A DNA stretch of 35,316 nt from an uncultured Methanosarcinales archaeon (GTDB lineage Archaea > Nanobdellota > Nanobdellia > Woesearchaeales > CAYSVS01): positions 1-35,316 of the forward strand of contig CAZPRK010000011.1 of assembly GCA_964589485.1 (NCBI GenBank), in the 5' to 3' direction. Numbering within the stretch: position 1 is the stretch's first letter; each line of letters opens with the position of its first letter. The translations under genes were made by a program, and so were the position numbers. The notes under the pieces were generated by a model. It was not told the DNA's origin. It made no database searches and was given only the letters and a program-made list of their open reading frames with translations. This document shows, piece after piece, positions 6,396-31,523 of this stretch.

Positions 6396-8942
6396 ATGCA
6401 AAAAGAAGAGGTTTTAGAGCATATTAAGGTTTTTTATGAGAAAAGTAAATCTTTTTCTAAAATTAAAAATGATTATCTTAATTATATCTTTAATACAATT
6501 CATAAAATAAATAATGTTTTGAAAAGTAATACTGAACGTAATTTCATTTATAATTCTTTAGATAATTTAGAACAAGATGATAAGGCATGGGGTAATTTTC
6601 CCGAATTTTCTATATTTAAGGAAAACATTGATTTCTTCTTAAATCATGATAAATTAGATGCTAATGAAAAACAATTTATTTGGATTTTACATAAAAAGGA
6701 GTTTAAGGGTGAGCATAAATTAACTAAATTTTTTGAATTATTATCTGAAGAAGAAGAGTTTTTAAATTCTAGTTTGAAATTAATTAATGAAATTAGTTTA
6801 TCTTGTAATGATCATAGATTAAAAGAATTATTAGATCTAAGTAGAAGAGAAGTAAATAAACTAATTAAAGCTGTAAGAGTTGAAATTAAAGCTTTAGAAA
6901 GAGGAAAGATTGAGTTATTAGAAAAGGTAATCTTGAAGTATAGATTAGATAATGTAATTGAAAACGAATTAAATAACTTTTTAATTGAAAATAAAATTCC
7001 CGATAATATTCCTAAACAGAAAGGGAAAGTTAAGGGCATAGTATCTATATTTGCTGCAATTTATATTGGAGTTACTTCTTGTATGCCATCAAATAAAGTT
7101 GAAGATCATACACTTGATAAACAGTTATATGATCAAGTTATTAGTAATATTGAATCTAAAAAGAATAATCAAGCAATTCAAAAAGAAAATGCTGATAGTT
7201 ATAGAGAAACTCACAATAAAAAAATTAGTAAAGGCTATTCTTCAATGGAGTTAAGTGAGATATTACATGCAATGGATGGATTATCTATTTCTTTGCCTAA
7301 TGTTAGTGGTGATGAAAAGCTTAAAGTATTAGCAGAATGGCAGAAAGGTTATGATGCTTTGATTGTTTATTTAAAGAATTTAGAACAAAAATTAATTCAT
7401 GCAAGAAATGCTGATATAGTAAGTATGACTAAGAATGAAATTTTAAATTATATTGATCATGTACAAGAATTGTTACAAAAAACAAAAGATCAAAGCTTAA
7501 GAAATAAGTTAATTGAACTATGGCAGAAAGCATATGATGTTATGAATATAAGGAATGATTCTAATGATTTTGTAGAATCTGAAGAGAGCGTTATCCCTGA
7601 AACAAATGAAAAAATTAAATTAAAAGATAAACAAATTAAGTCGGAAGAAGAAGTTGAAAATGAAAAAGAAGATGTCTTCAAACTTAATCCAAAACCTTGG
7701 CTTATGATTTCTAATCAGGGACCTATTTGGGTCAATTCAGAGTTAGAACGGATTAATGAGTTGGTTAAATTTTACCCTAGTAACAAGGCAGTATATGGCT
7801 ATTATGAAATTTTGAAACGTTGTCAGTACTTTTTTAAATTTTCTAATATTTATTCTTTGAGTGAAGGTAATAGATTAAATTTTTTGATCTATGTGCAGGA
7901 TAATCTTAAAAAAGAGTTAGAAGATGAATCTTTTAACTTTGATAACTTTAGAACACAGATAAGAAAAAAGTTAGAAAGTAATCCTAGCGAAATAAGAAAT
8001 GCACCTTATTTTTCACGGTATGATTTAGGTTTTATTATTTCTTGTTTAAATTGGAATTTGGAGACTTATGATTATTTGGAGGATGATATTCTCAATAATG
8101 AAGAAGTTATTAAACATCTAGCAAGAGAAGTTCCTAAGTTAAGTAGAAAATTAAGTGGATTGAATAAAGAGTATTATCTAAATTTATTAAAAGATGCAGA
8201 CAACAAAACAGATCTTGAAGGTGCAACCTATTTAGCTGATATTAATCCTGAAATTTTAGATGCTGATTTTGTAATTAAAGTTATTAAATTAAATCCTGCT
8301 GAGATGTATACTAAATCTATTTATAAATATATTTTAAAAAATAATTTAATAGATGTAGTTCTTAGTGTGGATGTTAGATTCTATTTTGCTATGGATTATT
8401 ATCATTACAAATTGTTACCTAAATTTACAAGTGATTTTTTTTATGAATTTCTTAAAATAGGTGAACAGCAATTTAGTGATCATTTTGAATCATTTTTATT
8501 TGATTTTGTTAATTTTGTTGATTATGATTATGCAGCTGAGGTTCTGGATAGCCGAATTATAGTTTTTTTCATAAAGCACAAATATTATAAATTCTTGGAA
8601 GTCATACATGATCACGTGGATTATGATTTGTTTTTTGAAGTAATTAACTTAGATCCAAAAAATTTGCATTATTTTGATAATCAGCAGTGGGTATATAATG
8701 TTATTAAAGATAATCCTGCACATGCTGAATTTCTGTCTTATGATTTGAGAAAAGATGTAAGTTTTATTAGTAAGTTAATTGATTATGTTCCTGAAGTAGT
8801 TGGGTATTTGCCACATTTAGATTTAAATATGGTTAAAAAATTAATAATTAAAATAGGTCCTGATTTTTTAGCTAATTTAAAAAGTAATGATCCTGACATA
8901 ATTTACTTCATTAAAAAAAACTATCCACAACATTCAAAATAA
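6396..8942 (+). CDS. Large hypothetical protein with an internal hydrophobic/lipobox-like segment and C-terminal helical repeats
   Basis: 848-aa ORF, TATA-like element upstream, KVKGIVSIFAAIYIGVTSC near aa 229, repeated 'VI..NP....Y/F' units near the C-terminus. Confidence 0.7.
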   Translation: MQKEEVLEHIKVFYEKSKSFSKIKNDYLNYIFNTIHKINNVLKSNTERNFIYNSLDNLEQDDKAWGNFPEFSIFKENIDFFLNHDKLDANEKQFIWILHKKEFKGEHKLTKFFELLSEEEEFLNSSLKLINEISLSCNDHRLKELLDLSRREVNKLIKAVRVEIKALERGKIELLEKVILKYRLDNVIENELNNFLIENKIPDNIPKQKGKVKGIVSIFAAIYIGVTSCMPSNKVEDHTLDKQLYDQVISNIESKKNNQAIQKENADSYRETHNKKISKGYSSMELSEILHAMDGLSISLPNVSGDEKLKVLAEWQKGYDALIVYLKNLEQKLIHARNADIVSMTKNEILNYIDHVQELLQKTKDQSLRNKLIELWQKAYDVMNIRNDSNDFVESEESVIPETNEKIKLKDKQIKSEEEVENEKEDVFKLNPKPWLMISNQGPIWVNSELERINELVKFYPSNKAVYGYYEILKRCQYFFKFSNIYSLSEGNRLNFLIYVQDNLKKELEDESFNFDNFRTQIRKKLESNPSEIRNAPYFSRYDLGFIISCLNWNLETYDYLEDDILNNEEVIKHLAREVPKLSRKLSGLNKEYYLNLLKDADNKTDLEGATYLADINPEILDADFVIKVIKLNPAEMYTKSIYKYILKNNLIDVVLSVDVRFYFAMDYYHYKLLPKFTSDFFYEFLKIGEQQFSDHFESFLFDFVNFVDYDYAAEVLDSRIIVFFIKHKYYKFLEVIHDHVDYDLFFEVINLDPKNLHYFDNQQWVYNVIKDNPAHAEFLSYDLRKDVSFISKLIDYVPEVVGYLPHLDLNMVKKLIIKIGPDFLANLKSNDPDIIYFIKKNYPQHSK

Positions 8943-9506
8943 ACTCAACACTAACCCAGCAACTAAAGGAACAACAATATTATCATTGATAGGCATTCCT
9001 TTTATTTCATCATAACTTTCTGCTGTCATGGCAATAGTAGAAGCAATTAATGCTTGCCACCATGGGACGAATATCATAGCACCTAAGGTACCAAAAAGAA
9101 TTCCAGCTATTAGCCCTTCAAAGAATTTAGAATTATTAAATGGATGTTTGATTCTTCCAAAATGTCCTATTAAAGGTCCTATAGCATCACCTAATGTTAA
9201 TATTGCTATTGAAGCTAATGCAATATTTTTTGGAAAAATTACAATTGAAACTAATATTCCTATTAATCCATATATTGTTCCTTTTAAAGGCATTTCATGC
9301 ATATCTTTTTTTCTTTCACAATGATTAAGAAAAAAGCTAATTATTGGAATTTTGTGATTTTTTAAAATGTTAGAAAATAAGAAAGATAAACAAAGTATTA
9401 AAAAAACATAAAATTCATTTAATATATTAAAATAAAGTAATATTATAAAAATAATTCCAAGAAAAATATGCATAGTTTGTCTTTTTAATTCCAATTTAGT
9501 TATCAT
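8934..9506 (-). CDS. Dolichol/phytol kinase-like membrane protein (SEC59/DGK1/VTE5 family)
   Basis: ELKRQTMH, LTLGDAIGPLIG.FGR, KFFEG, DNIVVPL motifs. Confidence 0.85.
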   Translation of the reverse strand: MITKLELKRQTMHIFLGIIFIILLYFNILNEFYVFLILCLSFLFSNILKNHKIPIISFFLNHCERKKDMHEMPLKGTIYGLIGILVSIVIFPKNIALASIAILTLGDAIGPLIGHFGRIKHPFNNSKFFEGLIAGILFGTLGAMIFVPWWQALIASTIAMTAESYDEIKGMPINDNIVVPLVAGLVLSLF

Positions 9507-19820: not shown

Positions 19821-20425
19821 ATGCAAATGAATATTTTAAAAGAAAAAGAAACTCCATTATTATCCAGAAAAAGGATTACTTTAGAAATTGATTATGATGG
19901 AAGTACGCCATCTTCTGAGCAAATTGTATCTGAATTATCAAAAAAAGCAAGTGTTGAAGAAAAATTAGTAGAGTTAAGACATATTTATAATAAATTTGGT
20001 AAGTCTAAAGCAAAAGTTATTGCACATGTATATAATGATGCTAATGCGATGTCTAAAATAATTAAATTAGGAAAAAAGGCAAAAGAAAAACTAGCTAAAA
20101 CTGAAGAAGATAAAAAGAAAGTTGAAGAATCTAAAGTTGAAGAGCCTGCTAAGGAAGAAGCTAAGCCCGAGGAAGAATCTAAAGTTGAAGAGCCTGCTAA
20201 GGAAGAANNNNNNNNNNNNNNNNNNNNNNNNNNNNNNNNNNNNNNNNNNNNNNNNNNNNNNNNNNNNNNNNNNNNNNNNNNNNNNNNNNNNNNNNNNNNN
20301 NNNNNNNGGAAGAAGCTAAGCCCGAGGAAGAATCTAAAGTTGAAGAGCCTGCTAAGGAAGAAGCTAAGCCCGAGGAAGAATCTAAAGTTGAAGAGCCTGC
20401 TAAGGAAGAAACTAAAGGTGAATAA
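19821..20425 (+). CDS. rps24e: 30S ribosomal protein S24e with repetitive acidic tail; spans an assembly gap
   Basis: PLLSRK, STPS, FG…AHVY. After the N-gap the repeat frame ends …PAKEETKGE* (TAA 20423-20425). Confidence 0.9.
20124..20410 (+). repeat. 48-bp coding tandem repeat ([16 protein letters not shown]), interrupted by a 100-N gap
   Basis: gaagaatctaaagttgaagagcctgctaaggaagaagctaagcccgag, identical on both sides of the gap. Confidence 0.95.
20208..20307. other. Scaffold gap (100 N)
   Basis: Run of N inside the tandem repeat. Confidence 0.99.
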
Positions 20426-26977: not shown

Positions 26978-27595
26978 TTAAAAAGGTTTCTGAATCTTAA
27001 AACAACTAACATTAATTCTTTCTATTCTCTTTGTATGGTGTTTATAAGTTTGTTTTAAAGGGAATTTAAACTTAAATTCTTGAGTTATTTTTGCATTATT
27101 ATCTTTGCATACTGCCTCTACAAAGCCTTTTGTCTCACTTTTATGCATAGAATAAACTATATTGCTATTAGAAAGAGCTTTTTCGAGGAATATTTTGTCT
27201 GCATGTTTAGTTTGCACACCAAATGGTGGGTTTTGTATTGTCAAATTTGCTTTAAAATCTATGTTTTTTATGTCGTCTATGATTATTTTATAGCTATTTA
27301 AGTCATTTAAACCCTCACTTTCAAGGTTTTTGTGTAGTGTTTCAACTGCTTTTTCATCAATTTCGATAAAAATAATTCTCTTTGCGCCTAATAATAAACA
27401 TCCTATTCCTAATATACCTGTTCCGCACCCTGCATCAACTATCACTTTTCCTTGTATTTCATCTTGCATGTGCATATTCCATAGTATTTCTGCTACTATT
27501 TCAGAATCTGTGGGGTATTGTTCATACCTCACTTTAGGGTTTTCAAACACTTTTAACTTAGATAATTTGATTGCTAATTGTGATTTTGATATCAT
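26978..27595 (-). CDS. METTL5-family N6-adenine rRNA methyltransferase
   Basis: EQYPT, DAGCGTG, QNPPFG, YSMHK. Confidence 0.92.
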   Translation of the reverse strand: MISKSQLAIKLSKLKVFENPKVRYEQYPTDSEIVAEILWNMHMQDEIQGKVIVDAGCGTGILGIGCLLLGAKRIIFIEIDEKAVETLHKNLESEGLNDLNSYKIIIDDIKNIDFKANLTIQNPPFGVQTKHADKIFLEKALSNSNIVYSMHKSETKGFVEAVCKDNNAKITQEFKFKFPLKQTYKHHTKRIERINVSCFKIQKPF

Positions 27596-27657: not shown

Positions 27658-27812
27658 AGTCTCATTTGAGTCCCAAGTTAGTCCCAGGTTGGGACTAGTT
27701 GGGACTGTCTGGGACTAACTTTATCGTCAATGTTTTTCTTTTTTTGAGTCTCAATCTCAGTCCTGCCTTAGTCTCAGGACTGTCTTGGGACTAATAATGT
27801 GGGATTGGGACT
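27658..27812. repeat. Two head-to-head arrays of the AGTCYCA/TGGGACT heptamer; probable protein-binding array
   Basis: Forward 27658, 27669, 27680; reverse 27690, 27700, 27710. Second set: forward 27747, 27759 (AGTCCTG), 27770; reverse 27775 (CAGGACT), 27786, 27800 (TGGGATT), 27806. Confidence 0.92.
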
Positions 27813-27857
27813 ATTATTTTATTTGATTTTTGATTAAATGTTTTGTGCAGAATTAGC

Positions 27858-28553
27858 TTAAGAAAAAGAGTAAATTCTTTCCCTTCCTTCTTTGGAAACA
27901 GATAATGTTTCATCTACTTCTATTTCAGAAAGAATTCTATAAAGTGAGCTTTTAGAACATAGTTTTTGTTCATCAACAATCATTTCTTTTATTTTACTTC
28001 CAGGTAATGAATTGTATTTTTGAAGTAAATTTAGTATTGAATTTTTTACATAGTTTTTACTATTTTTGGCTAAGTTTTGGATTAACTTTTCTTTAAAGTT
28101 AGATTTAGGTTTAGCTATTTCTGTGATTATATGTTGTTGTTTTGGCATTTTTTCTTGAATTGTGCTTAATCTTTCATGTTTTGTTTGTAAAAGTGAGTGT
28201 TTTTCTTCAAGTTCTTTTACTTTTTCATGCATCATTTTTACTCTATCAGGAGTATATTGGTGTGAAAAATGTAGCTGTTCTATTCTTTTATGCAGAGAAT
28301 TTAGTCTATGTCTTACATCGTGATTTAAATAATGCATATCGATTAAGTTAGTTATTTCTGCTTTAGAAGGCATAAAAGTGAGTTTTTCTTCAATAATATT
28401 AAGTCTTTTTATGTGGTTTTCGTGTTTAGTATCATGTTCAGTATGTTTCTGATGAAAATATTTAATCCATTCTAATAGGTTTTTAGTTTTATTATCTATA
28501 AAAGAACTAACTCTATTAAATATAAGTCTTTTATTTGCAAATAGCCCCCACAT
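27858..28553 (-). CDS. Coiled-coil protein with C-terminal winged-helix domain
   Basis: ILNLLQKY…IKEMIVDEQKLCSKSSLYRILSEIE plus a beta-wing. Likely start MWGLF at 28553, downstream of a TATA at about 28576-28583. Confidence 0.72.
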   Translation of the reverse strand: MWGLFANKRLIFNRVSSFIDNKTKNLLEWIKYFHQKHTEHDTKHENHIKRLNIIEEKLTFMPSKAEITNLIDMHYLNHDVRHRLNSLHKRIEQLHFSHQYTPDRVKMMHEKVKELEEKHSLLQTKHERLSTIQEKMPKQQHIITEIAKPKSNFKEKLIQNLAKNSKNYVKNSILNLLQKYNSLPGSKIKEMIVDEQKLCSKSSLYRILSEIEVDETLSVSKEGRERIYSFS

Positions 28554-28628
28554 ATTAGTAATAATTATATTCTCATTTAAATACCTTTTCATAAAATATA
28601 TAAACAGAATAAGATTATTTAATCTTAG

Positions 28629-29159
28629 ATGTTTTTCGATACAGCTAAAAAATTAAAAGAAGAGCTAGCCTCAAGTTTAAGTAATATTAAAGAACAGTTT
28701 CAACAACATTTAGATTCTATTAATGATAATACTAATGAGATTCAGGCTAATTATGAATACTTGTGTCAGCTTGATAATAAAATAGAAAAATTAAGTCAAA
28801 GAATTGATCAAATTCAATTATTGTTAAGGCAAGTAACAAAATCATCTTTGGTTGATGAAGAAGAAGAGTTTCAAGTACAACCTTTGGCTGTAAAAGAGAG
28901 AGAAGTTTTTCTTGTATTATATGCTGCAAATAAACAAGCATTAAGTTATTCTGAGATTTCTTCGTCGATAAATTTAACAGATAGTTTAGTTCAGCAATAT
29001 ATTACTAATTTAATTGAGAAAGGAGTTCCTATAATTAAAGAATACAGATTAGGTAAACCATTCATGAGGCTTGACGAGAAGTTTAAAGAGCTTCAAGCAA
29101 AGAAAAATATTTTAAATATAGATGAAAGCTTAATGAAAAAAGTCTTCTCAGGCTCTTAA
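28629..29159 (+). CDS. Coiled-coil protein with C-terminal winged-helix domain
   Basis: Heptads aa 1-68, then EREVFLVLY…LSYSEISSSINLTDSLVQQYITNLIEKGVPI (HTH_11/BirA-like). Confidence 0.8.
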   Translation: MFFDTAKKLKEELASSLSNIKEQFQQHLDSINDNTNEIQANYEYLCQLDNKIEKLSQRIDQIQLLLRQVTKSSLVDEEEEFQVQPLAVKEREVFLVLYAANKQALSYSEISSSINLTDSLVQQYITNLIEKGVPIIKEYRLGKPFMRLDEKFKELQAKKNILNIDESLMKKVFSGS

Positions 29160-29606
29160 TTTTTCGTTTTTAATGGACTTTTGTAAGTCTTGAATATAAT
29201 CTATTGAAGTTTCTAAATGGTTGTTTATTACTGTATTTGCTTTACTGAATGCTGTTTCCAAATTATTTCCATTTAATTCATACCCTTTACTTATTTCTCC
29301 TCTATTGGAGAATGATGCTTTTTTAATTATTTGTAATGTTAACCATCTTTTCAAATAGTCATACATTGTTTGTCTTTGTATGTTGGCATACATAGCCATT
29401 TCTTCTACTGACATAATCGATAATTCTGGTTTTTTTTCTTTTGTAGCTATTTTCTTTTTTTCATATAGTTGTAATAATAATTTATGAAAGTCTGCTTTTG
29501 CATCTTTTTTTCTAGGAATTAATCCAAACCTTGCAAGTGTAACTTTAGCTAATTCTTCTTTATTAGCACCTATTCCTGGGTTCATATGCCATAATTCTAT
29601 TTTCAT
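29148..29606 (-). CDS. Winged-helix DNA-binding protein
   Basis: MSVEEMAMYANIQRQTMYDYLKRWLTLQII…GYEL, followed by an amphipathic helix. Confidence 0.78.
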   Translation of the reverse strand: MKIELWHMNPGIGANKEELAKVTLARFGLIPRKKDAKADFHKLLLQLYEKKKIATKEKKPELSIMSVEEMAMYANIQRQTMYDYLKRWLTLQIIKKASFSNRGEISKGYELNGNNLETAFSKANTVINNHLETSIDYIQDLQKSIKNEKLRA

Positions 29607-29648
29607 AACTTTTATTATGAAATTTCTACTATAAATATTTTTCTGAGG

Positions 29649-30077
29649 TTTTCCCGACGATGATTAAAAGCTTTGATATTTGATTATAAATTACGTACAA
29701 TTTATTGATTTGATTTTGATTAAAATATTTAATTAAAGGTTGTATTTTCTAGATATAATTAAAAATACTCGAAATACGCAAAATAAGCCTGTATTTTAAA
29801 CGATTAAATGAAACTAATGCTATGCCAAGTCTCACTTTTCTTATTTTGCTAAGAACTTTTAATCAATTATTTTTGTCGGAATTATTATGTAATTTGTATT
29901 TGCCTAATTTTTACCAATTTCTGGAATTATTGTATTGTTGGTATACTCTATCTTACCTTGTTTTGTGATTTTCCCGACAAAGTAGTTTGGTATTAACTAC
30001 TCCAAGAAGCCCCCCTTGAGACCAAAGATGTTACAAACAATGGTGTTTTTTGGTAGTTTATTGAGAATGTCGGGTTT
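29649..30077. repeat. Four dispersed CCGAC boxes in alternating orientation in a 470-bp non-coding region
   Basis: TTTTCCCGAC 29649 (+), TTGTCGGAAT 29873 (-), TTTTCCCGACAA 29969 (+), TGTCGGG 30068 (-). Confidence 0.7.
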
Positions 30078-30483
30078 ATTCCAAATAGGCTGCAAATGCG
30101 TTGATAGATTTTAAAACTCTTATTGCTCCATCTTGTTTTTTATTATAGATTTTATCTAATCCTACTGGTGTATCTCTTAGAATTTTTTCTGTTTGATCAA
30201 GAATGTCATATACGTTTCTTTCTGCAGTATCATTGAAAAGAACATTATTTATTGTTTTATAACACCTGTCAAAAATAGTTTTTGTATTTTTAAGTGAAGG
30301 TGTAGTGGACATAATTGGAAGTCTTACTTTTATTCCTACTTTTTCTAAAGTTTTGTACATTTCAATTGCTAATTCATACAGTTTTTCGTCAATAAATTCT
30401 TTTTCTGTACTTAATACGGTTTCAATTGCATGTAAGTTATCTAATCTTCTTTCTAACTCCAAAGTCTCACTTTTTGCTTCCAT
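30076..30483 (-). CDS. Hypothetical helical protein
   Basis: 135-aa ORF with AAGGA SD and a TATA-like element upstream. Confidence 0.7.
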   Translation of the reverse strand: MEAKSETLELERRLDNLHAIETVLSTEKEFIDEKLYELAIEMYKTLEKVGIKVRLPIMSTTPSLKNTKTIFDRCYKTINNVLFNDTAERNVYDILDQTEKILRDTPVGLDKIYNKKQDGAIRVLKSINAFAAYLE

Positions 30484-30758
30484 TTTCCTTATATGGGTTG
30501 TTAATTTAAAAAGATTAGTATATTTCTAAACTATAGTTAACAATAGTTATTTTAAATCATATGTTTTGGTTTGTGGGTTTTCTTATATCTATATTGAAGA
30601 ATGCTTTTTATTTATTTTCAATATTGAAATTAAATGTTAACTTTATTCCAAAGTGACTCTTGTGGTGCTTTTACTTTAAGCTTTGATTAAATCTTTTAAT
30701 TATACCTGTATTAGGCACTATTTGGTTTGTTGCTTTTAAGTATTGTTTTATCGTCGAT

Positions 30759-31472
30759 CTAACCAACATAACTCATTTGTTTCTTTTGAGTGTCTGACAT
30801 CGCTACTTGCCCCTTAGAAAGTATATCTTTTACTTTTCCCTCAAACTTTTCAGCTTGTTGTAATAATGGTTTATAATCAACTTTTAATCCTAAATATTGA
30901 TCTAAAACTCTGATAACTTTAGCTGCAGCCCCGCTGTCTGGCATATTACTAGAAGTTTCTGCAAATAAACATGTATTTGTTATTTTTCTTTTGCCTTTAT
31001 ACAACATTGCACCAGTAACTCCCATAATAATTCCTTCTTTCATTCGAGTTAACCCTAATTCATCAAATTGTTTTACTTTTTTACTATTGTTACTATAATA
31101 AAAAACTCTTTGGTTTTCTTTAGTGTTAGTACTTCCAACTCCTTCTAAATTAATTATTTCTTTAGCTTTTAATTTTTTAGCTAGTTCTAATATTGCATCT
31201 ACTATTTTCCATTCAATGCCTTGTATTACAGTAATACCGTAAATAAAAACTAAATTATATTTTTTATTATGATAGATTCCGATAGGTTGTATTACTTTGT
31301 TAGCATGTATTGCAACCATTGCAGGGATATCGTTAAGAAATATGCTTCCTATTTCTTCACATTCTAAATGTTCGATTAAGAATTCAGCTGAAATAGTACC
31401 CACTAATCCAAATCCAGGAAAACCTTCTATGATTGTAACATTAGTTGGTTTTTTTAATAAATTTATCTCCAT
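30759..31472 (-). CDS. Proteasome assembly chaperone, PAC2/PbaA-B family
   Basis: IIEGFPGFGLVGTI, PDSGAAAKVI, C-terminal MSYVG. Start at ATG 31472 after GAGGTG. Confidence 0.9.
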   Translation of the reverse strand: MEINLLKKPTNVTIIEGFPGFGLVGTISAEFLIEHLECEEIGSIFLNDIPAMVAIHANKVIQPIGIYHNKKYNLVFIYGITVIQGIEWKIVDAILELAKKLKAKEIINLEGVGSTNTKENQRVFYYSNNSKKVKQFDELGLTRMKEGIIMGVTGAMLYKGKRKITNTCLFAETSSNMPDSGAAAKVIRVLDQYLGLKVDYKPLLQQAEKFEGKVKDILSKGQVAMSDTQKKQMSYVG

Positions 31473-31523
31473 TAATAAACACCTCTCACAATAAACCAAA
31501 AGTATTCTTTTATATAAACTTTT

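Follow-up and report, generated by a model that had tools for sequence, protein, structure and literature searches.

The features of the locus are given below with their positions in the window, by which we mean the whole stretch of 35,316 nucleotides that was analysed.

26978 to 27595, minus strand: MT205, a small SAM-dependent methyltransferase that matches Pfam Cons_hypoth95 (1e-12) and MTS (1e-11)
27658 to 27716, no strand: iteron block I, three AGTCYCA at 11-bp steps (plus strand starts 27658, 27669 and 27680), then three TGGGACT at 10-bp steps (minus strand, 27690, 27700 and 27710)
27717 to 27746, no strand: spacer between the iteron blocks, with the CG-containing core TTTATCGTCAATG at 27720-27732
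27747 to 27812, no strand: iteron block II, with exact heptamers at 27747 and 27770 (plus strand) and at 27786 and 27806 (minus strand), and degenerate copies at 27759, 27777 and 27800
27858 to 28592, minus strand: gene A, an N-terminal three-helix coiled coil and a C-terminal winged helix; presumed iteron binder
28554 to 28628, no strand: divergent A/B promoter region; a TATA-like AAATATATAAA read from the sequence at 28593-28605 is putatively assigned to the promoter of B
28629 to 29159, plus strand: gene B, a single long N-terminal helix and a winged helix; core gene of the order
29148 to 29606, minus strand: gene C, a conserved 152-aa HTH protein; accessory gene
29607 to 30075, no strand: non-coding stretch of 469 bp, with CCGAC boxes 1 to 4 at 29654, 29875, 29974 and 30069 and one CTCACTTTT box at 29831
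29630 to 29660, minus strand: C promoter, in which the TATA box AATATTTATA (minus strand, 29630-29639) adjoins box 1, CGTCGGGAA (minus strand, CCGAC at 29654-29658)
30076 to 30483, minus strand: D135, a gene in a variable slot; a same-genus genome has no homologue there and a different 266-aa ORF instead
30484 to 30758, no strand: spacer of 275 bp before PAC2, with the palindrome TTTTCAATATTGAAA around 30617 and ATCGTCGAT at 30750

Genes A, B and C are arranged in the way that a sequence-only reading of this DNA had described, and its observation that the right-hand non-coding stretch stands out also holds, since the intergenic gaps elsewhere in the window are mostly below 100 bp. Its statement that all three are winged-helix proteins stood for A and B, which have this domain in their AF2 models, and not equally for C, the HTH of which is weakly supported. 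MT205 is the first gene of a conserved MT205-RpoL neighbourhood as judged by synteny, and its start codon lies 63 bp from the array, which is on its upstream side. A probably starts in truth at M14, the ATG of which is at 28553, and a TATA-like TATTTAAAT lies at 28573-28581; M14 is the nearly invariant first residue among the relatives of A. No heptamer was seen when the sequence of the divergent A/B promoter region was read.

On both strands of the window AGTCYCA occurs 13 times when 4.03 ± 2.12 copies are expected and none of 100 shuffles reached 13, and 10 of the 13 copies fall in 27658-27812. Together with the three degenerate copies (AGTCCTG at 27759, GGACTG at 27777 and TGGGAT at 27800), found by reading the sequence, the ten exact copies add up to the about 13 phased heptamers that had been reported. 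Block I contains an inverted repeat, I19, the 13-nt arms of which are 100% complementary. The array is unique in the genome: among 88 exact heptamer matches in 1,158,583 bp (23 contigs) it is the sole cluster of at least three, a looser motif with 2066 matches over the same genome (G000) revealed no second phased cluster, and this loose scan found no regulon for A. Contigs from four DNA runs are identical to the window across the array, which means that the sequence is stable in that population and nothing more. The idea that the array is a structured RNA or a hairpin was rejected because Rfam and tRNA scans of the window gave no matches and folding was seen only in the inverted-repeat version of the window (z of -6.3, against +0.45, -1.5 and -1.1 for three direct-repeat arrays).

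Gene A and the AGTCYCA/TGGGACT array are a conserved pair. The sequence-only reading had suggested synteny and flanking arrays as a check, and we found that gene A and the heptamer array go together throughout the order. In named Woesearchaeota/Nanoarchaeia genomes, 66 of 80 A loci have an adjoining 11-bp-phased A(G/T)TCCCA array by a strict test that no shuffle passed (0/80); 9 of the 14 loci that fail it still have at least seven matches, and some of the 14 have cut flanks. At least five motif matches within 250 bp were present at 28 of 30 A loci (24 of 26 without four loci from unpublished genomes), and 13 further published A loci all have the array. In 20 loci centred on C, the array is present in all four that have an A gene and in none of the 16 syntenic loci without A. 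As a control, 32 pieces of 20 kb from the closed genome of a relative, G016, gave a maximum of 3-6 matches and in 31 of them no 11-bp gap, and no second array cluster was present in the 660 kb of this genome that were sampled. The pair is present in at least 123 species-level genomes. At E<=1e-15, A is found in 28 of 100 genomes of the order, and it is missing from about 60-70% of the genomes in the order.

Of about 190 gaps between same-strand neighbouring units 93 are exactly 11 bp, the repeat core TCCCA is fixed, and the A at +4 is kept in 87% of 451 units. Most commonly, two repeat blocks that end just before the A promoter, on its upstream side, are followed by A and then B, and 32 of 39 published loci have the array 5' of A in two blocks. 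In 20 of these 32 the final unit lies 37-67 nt before the ORF start and directly upstream of a TATA-like AAAGATTTATTAA, the TATA boxes having been assigned by eye. At the other seven loci, the window included, the array is 3' of A, distant from the A promoter and undiminished in size. In the genus of the window A alone is inverted, so that the array now has the 3' end of A on one side and the MT205 promoter on the other. Arrays range from 6 to 21 sites per locus, which is far beyond the need of an archaeal operator and counts against A being an autoregulator.

The AF2 model of A (pLDDT 81) consists of long N-terminal helices and a winged helix at residues 165-243 with a pLDDT of about 96. Its recognition helix, LCSKSS(F/L)YR, is invariant, and CSKSS(F/L)YR is unchanged in 26 proteins. 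The co-variation of recognition helix and motif that had also been suggested as a check was not seen, as no residue of A cleanly tracks G-type (AGTCCCA) versus T-type (ATTCCCA) arrays. This and the 14 loci that fail the strict test count against reading A as the binder of the array. Foldseek with A gave no match at E<=0.001, only generic winged-helix rows with the coiled-coil part barely covered, and VIA gave Z scores of 8-10 over residues 160-244, again with generic winged-helix rows. The TubR structure 6aht_B was at rank 9 in Foldseek with an E of 0.029, indistinguishable from dozens of other winged-helix matches, and a sequence-profile search of the PDB returned coiled-coil noise and no match to TubR. 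Pfam and NCBIfam scans of A gave no match to KfrA. Overall, these scans, the PDB profile search and the fold searches detected no sequence relationship of A to KfrA, ParR or TubR. No A was found among viral contigs in IMG/VR or plasmids in PLSDB, and in the literature searched there was no paper describing the A family or the array. We also considered A as a paralogue of B; this was rejected at the sensitivity of BLASTP (E of 0.38) and hhalign (probability 1.6%).

Gene B belongs to the core genes of the order and is nearly universal there, being present in 82 of 100 genomes irrespective of A or C. It adjoins A in 30 of 30 A loci, where it is the downstream gene, and in loci without A it is the direct neighbour of MT205. 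Its AF2 model has a pLDDT of 81, its matches to HTH_11/HTH_24 are weak, and a fold search returned generic winged-helix rows, the best being AdcR and BlaI at an E of about 1e-3. As sites for B the CTCACTTTT boxes were rejected, since 9 of the 16 loci that have B and neither A nor C are devoid of them.

Gene C, which 30 of 100 genomes have, is an independent accessory regulator. It matches HTH_Crp_2 at an E of 0.013, 9 of 22 members of its family match HTH_Crp_2, its language-model neighbours are of the ArsR/HTH_5 type (score 0.91-0.94), a PDB sequence-profile search gave no match, and all of its 166 relatives are without a name or a Pfam family. The non-coding stretch next to it has no ORF of at least 60 aa and holds four of the six CCGAC of the window, so that the 470-bp non-coding region with four CCGAC boxes noted before is correct but for one base pair. 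The count in the window (6 against 3.56 expected) is reached by 16 of 100 shuffles, and the clustering is supported because the boxes are conserved in two same-genus genomes. The arrangement of TATA box and box 1 is kept in all three same-genus sequences, a palindromic operator adjoins the C TATA box in many families, and 13 of 21 loci, compared to 3.7% of random windows, have a GTCG[GA]NA half-site no more than 110 nt from the C start. We propose that the CCGAC boxes are half-sites of a conserved operator of C itself, which C is predicted to bind, and that C would be a separate autoregulator acting on these CCGAC (GTCGG) boxes. An operator is thereby assigned to C, the second unnamed regulator family of the locus.

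The sequence-only reading had joined the three genes and the two repeat sets in one module, in which different winged-helix proteins go with different motifs. The latter part agrees with our results, as the heptamers track A and the CCGAC operator lies beside the C TATA box, but the single module does not. That A, B and C cooperate, with both repeat sets forming one nucleoprotein module, would fit their being contiguous in the window and present together in 4 of the 20 loci centred on C, and CATCGTCGGGAA, the C operator of this genus, is similar to the CG-rich core of TCGTCG type that separates the iteron blocks. Against it, A (28/100) and C (30/100) share 4 genomes when 8.4 are expected if they are independent, B is in its 82 genomes regardless of either, genomes with A and no C gene, such as G016, retain an array that has TTATCGACGG as its core, and across lineages the array is unaffected by the loss of C. 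We therefore consider such an integrated machine very unlikely. The origin of replication that had been suggested fares still worse. Archaeal oriC of the Orc1/Cdc6 type has ORB boxes around an A/T-rich unwinding element and is usually found beside cdc6 at a switch of the GC skew. If the locus were an origin or an initiator-control region, the heptamers or the CCGAC boxes would be initiator sites, and it is true that repeats border an A/T-rich spacer and that the non-coding gaps are long. However, the 7-mer repeats with their 11-bp steps go with A and not with Cdc6, most genomes of the order lack the module, and the only cdc6/orc1 gene is on contig C1 and not on the contig of the window. That neither Cdc6/Orc1 nor ParA/SegA is visible here was a correct observation, the CbiA/ParA-family genes being on C16, C1 and C4 with none on C11. 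In the closed G016, the one genome from which the skew was taken (sampled 20 kb per 40 kb), the cumulative GC skew is lowest at about 700-720 kb and highest at about 140 kb; cdc6 at 765 kb is near the minimum, whereas the A module (436.5 kb) sits midway along the negative-skew arm, where there is no change of sign. The module and cdc6 are 329-359 kb apart. No second copy of a 24-nt box upstream of cdc6 was found at up to 6 mismatches, and the most A/T-rich stretch downstream of cdc6 is not obviously an origin. An origin at the A module is extremely unlikely.

We lean, with little more than even confidence, towards the reading that A assembles on the iterons into a single-locus nucleoprotein complex which controls the A-B promoter in the manner of KfrA, TubR or ParR, with C as a separate autoregulator. 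A, which very probably binds the repeats, would be a dedicated binder of one locus, its invariant recognition helix reading the invariant TCCCA core and its coiled coil making it oligomeric. Since sites phased at 11 bp all point to nearly the same face of the DNA, many copies of A could assemble side by side, and copies on both repeat blocks would form one large complex. In the common and probably ancestral layout this complex would stop 10-20 bp short of the A-B operon's TATA box, on the upstream side, and would thereby set the level of A and perhaps that of B. Our data show that A and the array are inherited together, how the array is built, that it is unique in the genome, and which folds the proteins have; binding, cooperativity and regulatory output are what we infer here. 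Simple autoregulation does not account for the full size at which the array is kept even where it is 3' of A.

Each of the known systems resembles this locus in part. ParR/parC of plasmid R1 (type II) has its 11-bp iterons in two blocks around a short core beside the gene of the binder, ParR coats them cooperatively, and the system is autoregulated. ParR is a ribbon-helix-helix protein, in contrast to the winged helix of A, and ParMRC has the ParM actin in the same operon while the A module has no actin-like gene. KfrA of RA3 joins an HTH to a long coiled coil and is a strong autoregulator; its single operator, at its own promoter, consists of five 9-nt repeats, three direct and two inverted; it pairs with an alpha-helical neighbour, KfrC, and stable inheritance of the plasmid depends on its binding (PMC7783346). 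The KfrA proteins of IncU/IncP plasmids (RA3, RK2, R751) share with A an HTH, a coiled coil and one locus of short repeats in both orientations, but the A array has 6-21 repeats at 11-bp steps in two blocks and lies upstream of the promoter and not over it. The domain order is also reversed, A having its coiled coil at the N-terminus and its winged helix at the C-terminus, and A has neither the N-terminal HTH of the KfrA family nor a match to Pfam KfrA_N. Furthermore, A is chromosomal and archaeal and has no linked ParA/ParB. TubR binds split direct repeats (tubC) that are always upstream of tubR and thereby covers or represses the promoter (PMC6009700), and it is like A in being a winged-helix binder with a split array upstream of its own gene (32 of 39 A loci, the window itself having it 3'). 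TubR is without a long coiled coil, A is chromosomal, and where TubZRC has the TubZ GTPase gene the A locus has none, the downstream gene being the winged-helix B in 30 of 30 loci. The archaeal SegAB and AspA-ParB-ParA systems also have a site-specific binder, which marks a site on a chromosome or plasmid beside its own operon (PMC8682754, PMC12139799), but SegB is encoded with the ParA-type SegA in the same operon and A has no adjacent ATPase. Archaeal repressors of the MarR, ArsR, BlaI and PadR type have the winged-helix fold of A, B and probably C. Autoregulated winged-helix repressors resemble C in having a palindromic operator beside their own TATA box, whereas ordinary one-operator repressors, unlike A with its 6-21 phased sites, lack the long coiled coil.

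The same likenesses allow a second reading, in which the A-iteron complex is a cis-acting handle, i.e., a centromere-like or chromosome-organising site, with its motor or partner encoded elsewhere or being B, and in which control of the A promoter is a side function as in ParR/parC, TubR/tubC and KfrA. We regard this as possible but doubtful. There is one such locus per genome, and its array keeps its full size also at the 7 of 39 loci where it is detached from the A promoter; split 11-bp iteron blocks beside the gene of the binder match the anatomy of type II/III centromeres, and a long coiled coil in A with the coiled-coil B adjacent in 30 of 30 loci is reminiscent of KfrA with KfrC. Three ParA/MinD-type genes and an SMC-like gene are present elsewhere in the genome. 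On the other hand, no NTPase gene is in the module in any locus inspected, and 34 of 100 genomes have the sole ParA-like (non-MinD) gene, the one on C16, which occurs together with A in 11 when 9.5 are expected; a same-genus genome (G032) is without it, and co-occurrence over the 100 genomes found no ParA-like partner for A. The distance of the module from cdc6 also speaks against it, as does the lack of A on viral contigs and plasmids (IMG/VR, PLSDB), and since A is lacking in so many genomes it cannot be the general segregation device of the order. The stronger proposal, that the complex is the chromosomal centromere or anchor of a large Woesearchaeota branch, a plasmid-style segrosome that follows the logic of KfrA, TubR and ParR but consists of an unrelated coiled-coil winged-helix protein, acting by way of the coiled coils of A and of the core protein B and with no dedicated NTPase at the locus, we think unlikely; if true, it would be the first candidate element for chromosome segregation or positioning in DPANN archaea. 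The module may also be the domesticated remnant of a maintenance cassette (KfrA-, ParR- or TubR-like) of a mobile element, fixed beside B early and repeatedly lost later. Its patchy presence within the order (28 of 100 by strong matches), its position as an insert between B and MT205, and its plasmid-like anatomy are in line with this, but the module occupies the same chromosomal position in many families, copies were found neither in IMG/VR nor in PLSDB, and there is no detected sequence relationship to KfrA, ParR or TubR. The module contains no integrase or other mobile gene, one tyrosine recombinase in G016 being 3.6 kb off. We give this reading very little probability.

The locus bears on a subject that is poorly known, namely, archaeal chromosome segregation and organisation. 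To our knowledge, DPANN archaea cannot be grown alone, and the A-array pair is amenable to study in vitro or in a surrogate host. The pair is sharply defined, in that a single protein family goes with a single 7-bp core, phased at 11 bp, at one site in each genome, and even if it were merely an elaborate autoregulator it would be a clean new model of cooperative winged-helix assembly on phased sites. In the literature searched, SegAB is the sole studied archaeal candidate for segregation (PMC8682754, PMC12139799), and nothing was found there on chromosome segregation in DPANN archaea.

In the spacer between the two blocks, at the place of the core in the window, the relatives have TTATCGTCGATAA, CTCGTCGG, GTCGTCTT or CTCGAG, and a CGTC, GACG, TCGA or CTCGAG motif is present in the largest internal gap of the array in 17 of 39 published loci.

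The window spans all 35,316 bp of contig C11 of a 1.16-Mb genome (27% G+C, estimated completeness 99.9%) whose related records bear the titles Woesearchaeota, Nanoarchaeia or Nanoarchaeota. The contig contains a scaffold gap, 100 N at 20208-20307. The genes around the heptamer array are arranged as follows.

26978-27595, minus strand, MT205, small SAM-dependent methyltransferase gene left of the array
262 bp from MT205 to gene A, the gap bearing the heptamers
27858-28592, minus strand, gene A
28629-29159, plus strand, gene B
29148-29606, minus strand, gene C
469 bp from gene C to D135
30076-30483, minus strand, D135, gene in a variable slot right of C
275 bp from D135 to PAC2
30759-31499, minus strand, PAC2

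The sequence-only reading had reported about 13 phased heptamers left of these candidate DNA-binding protein genes, and this was confirmed. The window holds 13 copies of AGTCYCA where 4.0 are expected, and 0 of 100 shuffles contain that many as 13; 27658-27812 has 10 of the 13 together with three degenerate copies interspersed among them. In block I the three forward copies are spaced 11 bp apart, and the three reverse copies after them 10 bp apart. A spacer of 30 bp, in which the core TTTATCGTCAATG lies, separates this block from the less regular block II. Among the 88 exact matches in the genome this cluster is the sole one, and a looser motif found no other phased cluster genome-wide. Rfam and tRNA scans of the window gave no matches.

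The three proteins were searched across genomes of the same order, and the array was found to accompany gene A. In 20 C-centred loci the recurring gene order is PAC2 - C - B - (A) - MT205 - RpoL - UPPS, and an A[GT]TC[CT]C cluster is present in 4/4 of those with A but in 0/16 of those without it. In most loci without A, B and MT205 are directly adjacent and divergent with 160-370 bp between them. Since the array is absent and B and MT205 are direct neighbours where A is lacking, A and the array behave as a single insert. With A as the query, 160 of 401 genomes had a match at E<=1e-5 and, of the first 100, 28 had one at E<=1e-15; these tallies take in 11 unpublished genomes. At least five motif matches lie in a 250-bp stretch beside A in 28 of the 30 best loci (24/26 without four loci from unpublished genomes); the two remaining loci have a GTCCTA variant array (L050) and a weak array (L061). 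In a second set, of published loci, the array was present in 13/13. In the closed relative G016, the piece containing A has 15 motif matches, while 32 control 20-kb pieces have a maximum of 3-6 and the 11-bp gap is absent from 31 of them. A third sample was drawn with a recognition-helix peptide signature, which matched 123 species-level genomes, and 80 loci were kept; a strict test (at least six matches in 320 bp and at least two same-strand gaps of 10-12 bp) was passed by 66 of them versus 0/80 shuffles, and 9 of the 14 failures nonetheless have at least seven matches. An HMM of A was run on 401 genomes of the phylum. It matched strongly and over its full length only within the same order; in the rest of the class it matched weakly (1e-9 to 1e-14), and among the matches listed there nearly all cover N-terminal profile positions alone. 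In other orders of the class (e.g. G451, G526, G552), proteins of 186-241 aa match profile positions 1-172 only, at E 1e-9 to 1e-14; these N-terminal matches may come from a related family whose DNA-binding domain differs, or reflect coiled-coil similarity alone.

Across 39 published loci the repeat unit, from 451 units, is nA(C/T)A(G/T)TCCCA, with a median of 11 units per array (range 3-19). Of about 190 pairs of same-strand neighbours among relatives, 93 are spaced by exactly 11 bp. The usual form is two blocks 30-64 bp apart, and the spacer often holds a core with a CG in it (TTATCGTCGATAA, CTCGTCGG, GTCGTCTT or CTCGAG); in 17 of the 39 loci the largest gap contains a motif of this kind. 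In 32/39 the array precedes A on its 5' side, and in 20 of these 32 the last unit is 37-67 nt ahead of the start of the A reading frame; a TATA-like AAAGATTTATTAA comes 10-20 nt after this unit and about 30 nt before the ATG (TATA boxes were placed by eye throughout). In the common layout A is followed by B with 44-150 bp between, and A and B adjoin in 30/30 loci (26/26 published). A alone is inverted in 7/39 loci, among them the window and the two same-genus genomes; there A and B are divergent, the array separates MT205 from the 3' end of A, and the repeats are in mixed orientation. This orientation is what lets the window's array fold in single-stranded form (z -6.3 to -7.5), whereas three direct-repeat arrays do not (z +0.45, -1.5 and -1.1). 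The array as a hairpin or RNA was therefore rejected, and the conserved feature is probably a double-stranded protein site. One relative, L024 (G083), has two ATTCCCA-type arrays (8360-8470 and 9106-9200), one adjoining its enlarged A gene (354-aa open frame); the second, which has a TTTGTCGACGATGAA core and four units spaced 12 bp apart, lies upstream of MT205. In another, L025 (G043), a (CA)n microsatellite (8147-8175, about 15 units) directly adjoins the iteron array.

The AF2 model of A (26-sequence alignment, pLDDT 81) has three helices (15-72, 77-112 and 114-148), then a disordered linker, then a winged helix (165-243, pLDDT about 96). The N-terminal part is variable among relatives and the winged helix nearly invariant (NSKxYVKN...LCSKSS(F/L)YRIL). 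Because the relatives begin at the residue aligned with M14, the true start of A is probably the ATG at 28553; a TATA-like box was placed by eye at 28573-28581. Pfam, NCBIfam and PDB sequence searches gave no family assignment for A, and fold searches returned generic winged-helix rows only. B is modelled as a single long helix (2-70) and a winged helix (88-148), matches HTH_11/HTH_24 weakly, gives generic MarR/BlaI-type fold rows, and has no detectable relatedness to A. The description of these proteins as coiled-coil and wHTH proteins stands for the models of A and B; C is only weakly HTH-like by sequence. The proposal that the three form one module was not borne out. B is present in 82/100 genomes of the order and is therefore a core gene; C, with 166 unnamed relatives, is present in 30/100; A and C co-occur in 4/100 versus 8.4 expected and are independent.

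The long non-coding gap right of C (469 bp) with its four CCGAC boxes (29654, 29875, 29974 and 30069) was upheld as described. When the window was aligned with two same-genus genomes, the flanks were 65% identical and the boxes were retained, box 1 (CGTCGGGAA in C's reading direction) and box 2 in all three sequences and boxes 3 and 4 in both that extend that far. Box 1 is directly upstream of the C TATA box, and in other families its position is occupied by the palindrome CGACA-NN-TGTCG(G). In 13/21 loci a GTCG[GA]NA half-site is no more than 110 nt away from the start of C, versus 3.7% of random windows, and the full palindrome occurs in 7/21 versus 0.6%. TTCCCGAC has three copies in the genome, two of them in the right-hand gap region. 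We read the boxes as a candidate operator set of C, which would be their binder and an ordinary autoregulator. What lies between C and PAC2 varies: instead of a D135 counterpart, the same-genus genome has another ORF there, of 266 aa.

For A, we favour with moderate confidence cooperative assembly on the iterons, by which a single-locus nucleoprotein complex would form and would control the adjacent promoter. The main rival, to our minds rather unlikely, is that the complex of A with the iterons has a cis-acting, centromere-like or scaffold role. The 6-21 sites, the single genomic target and the full-size array retained where A faces away all argue for more than plain autoregulation. A full partition system is opposed by the absence of an NTPase gene in and beside the module. 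The three ParA/MinD-type genes of the genome are all on other contigs, and the only ParA-like one, missing in a same-genus genome, occurs in 34/100 genomes and overlaps with A in 11 versus 9.5 expected. Moreover, A is lacking in most genomes of the order and had no match in the collections of viruses and plasmids searched. The orphan ParA-like ATPase itself (C16:15064-15813; L235 1498-2247) scores 102 bits for NCBIfam ParA_partition, under the cut-off of 180, and has downstream small BolA-like and glutaredoxin-like ORFs and no DNA-binding partner.

The anatomy of A and its array matches that of R1 parC (type II). It also matches type III tubC/tubR in having split direct repeats upstream of the binder gene; tubC is upstream of tubR with direct repeats in split blocks, and binding represses the promoter (PMC6009700). 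A further match, in the HTH, the coiled coil and the repeat operator, is KfrA, for which PMC7783346 describes an HTH with a long coiled coil, a partner KfrC, a need for it in plasmid stability, and only one operator, which overlies its own promoter and consists of five 9-nt repeats, some direct and some inverted. No description of the A family or of the array was found in the literature searched, a statement that holds for that literature only. Several tallies in this work include unpublished genomes, marked at each count.

The suggestion of an origin-like locus was made unlikely by the skew analysis, done on 33 pieces of 20 kb sampled from one closed genome (G016, 1,301,350 bp). Cumulative GC skew along it is highest near 140 kb and lowest near 700-720 kb, with cdc6 at 765 kb, and the A module, at 436.5 kb, is in the middle of the falling arm. 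The sole cdc6/orc1 gene of our genome is on contig C1, and the distance from the A module to cdc6 is 329, 359 and 354 kb in three genomes. These positions speak against the A module as a replication origin.

Another motif specific to the locus, (A)ACYCTCACTTTT, is found 10 times genome-wide, six of these on contig C11. Sites in the window and in relatives include the following.

29831-29839, 30466-30474 and 27134-27142, window
7780-8215, relative L084 (G016)
8668-8893, relative L024
10066-10229, relative L028

In relatives, copies of the motif in one orientation follow each other at 50-180-bp steps, either beside the iteron array or flanking C to left and right. The motif is present in 13/13 loci carrying A or C; among 16 loci with B alone it is absent from 9, and only 4 have at least three copies. 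The palindrome TTATTTATTT(T)CAATATTGAAA, at 30610-30635, has three genome copies with extended flanks (the others at C2:46769 and C12:7953), lies near CTCACTTTT boxes in several relatives and is possibly the site of another regulator. Finally, ATCGTCGAT at 30750-30758, at the 3' end of PAC2, is one of only two genome copies, and this palindrome is the inter-block iteron core in some relatives (L066, L067).
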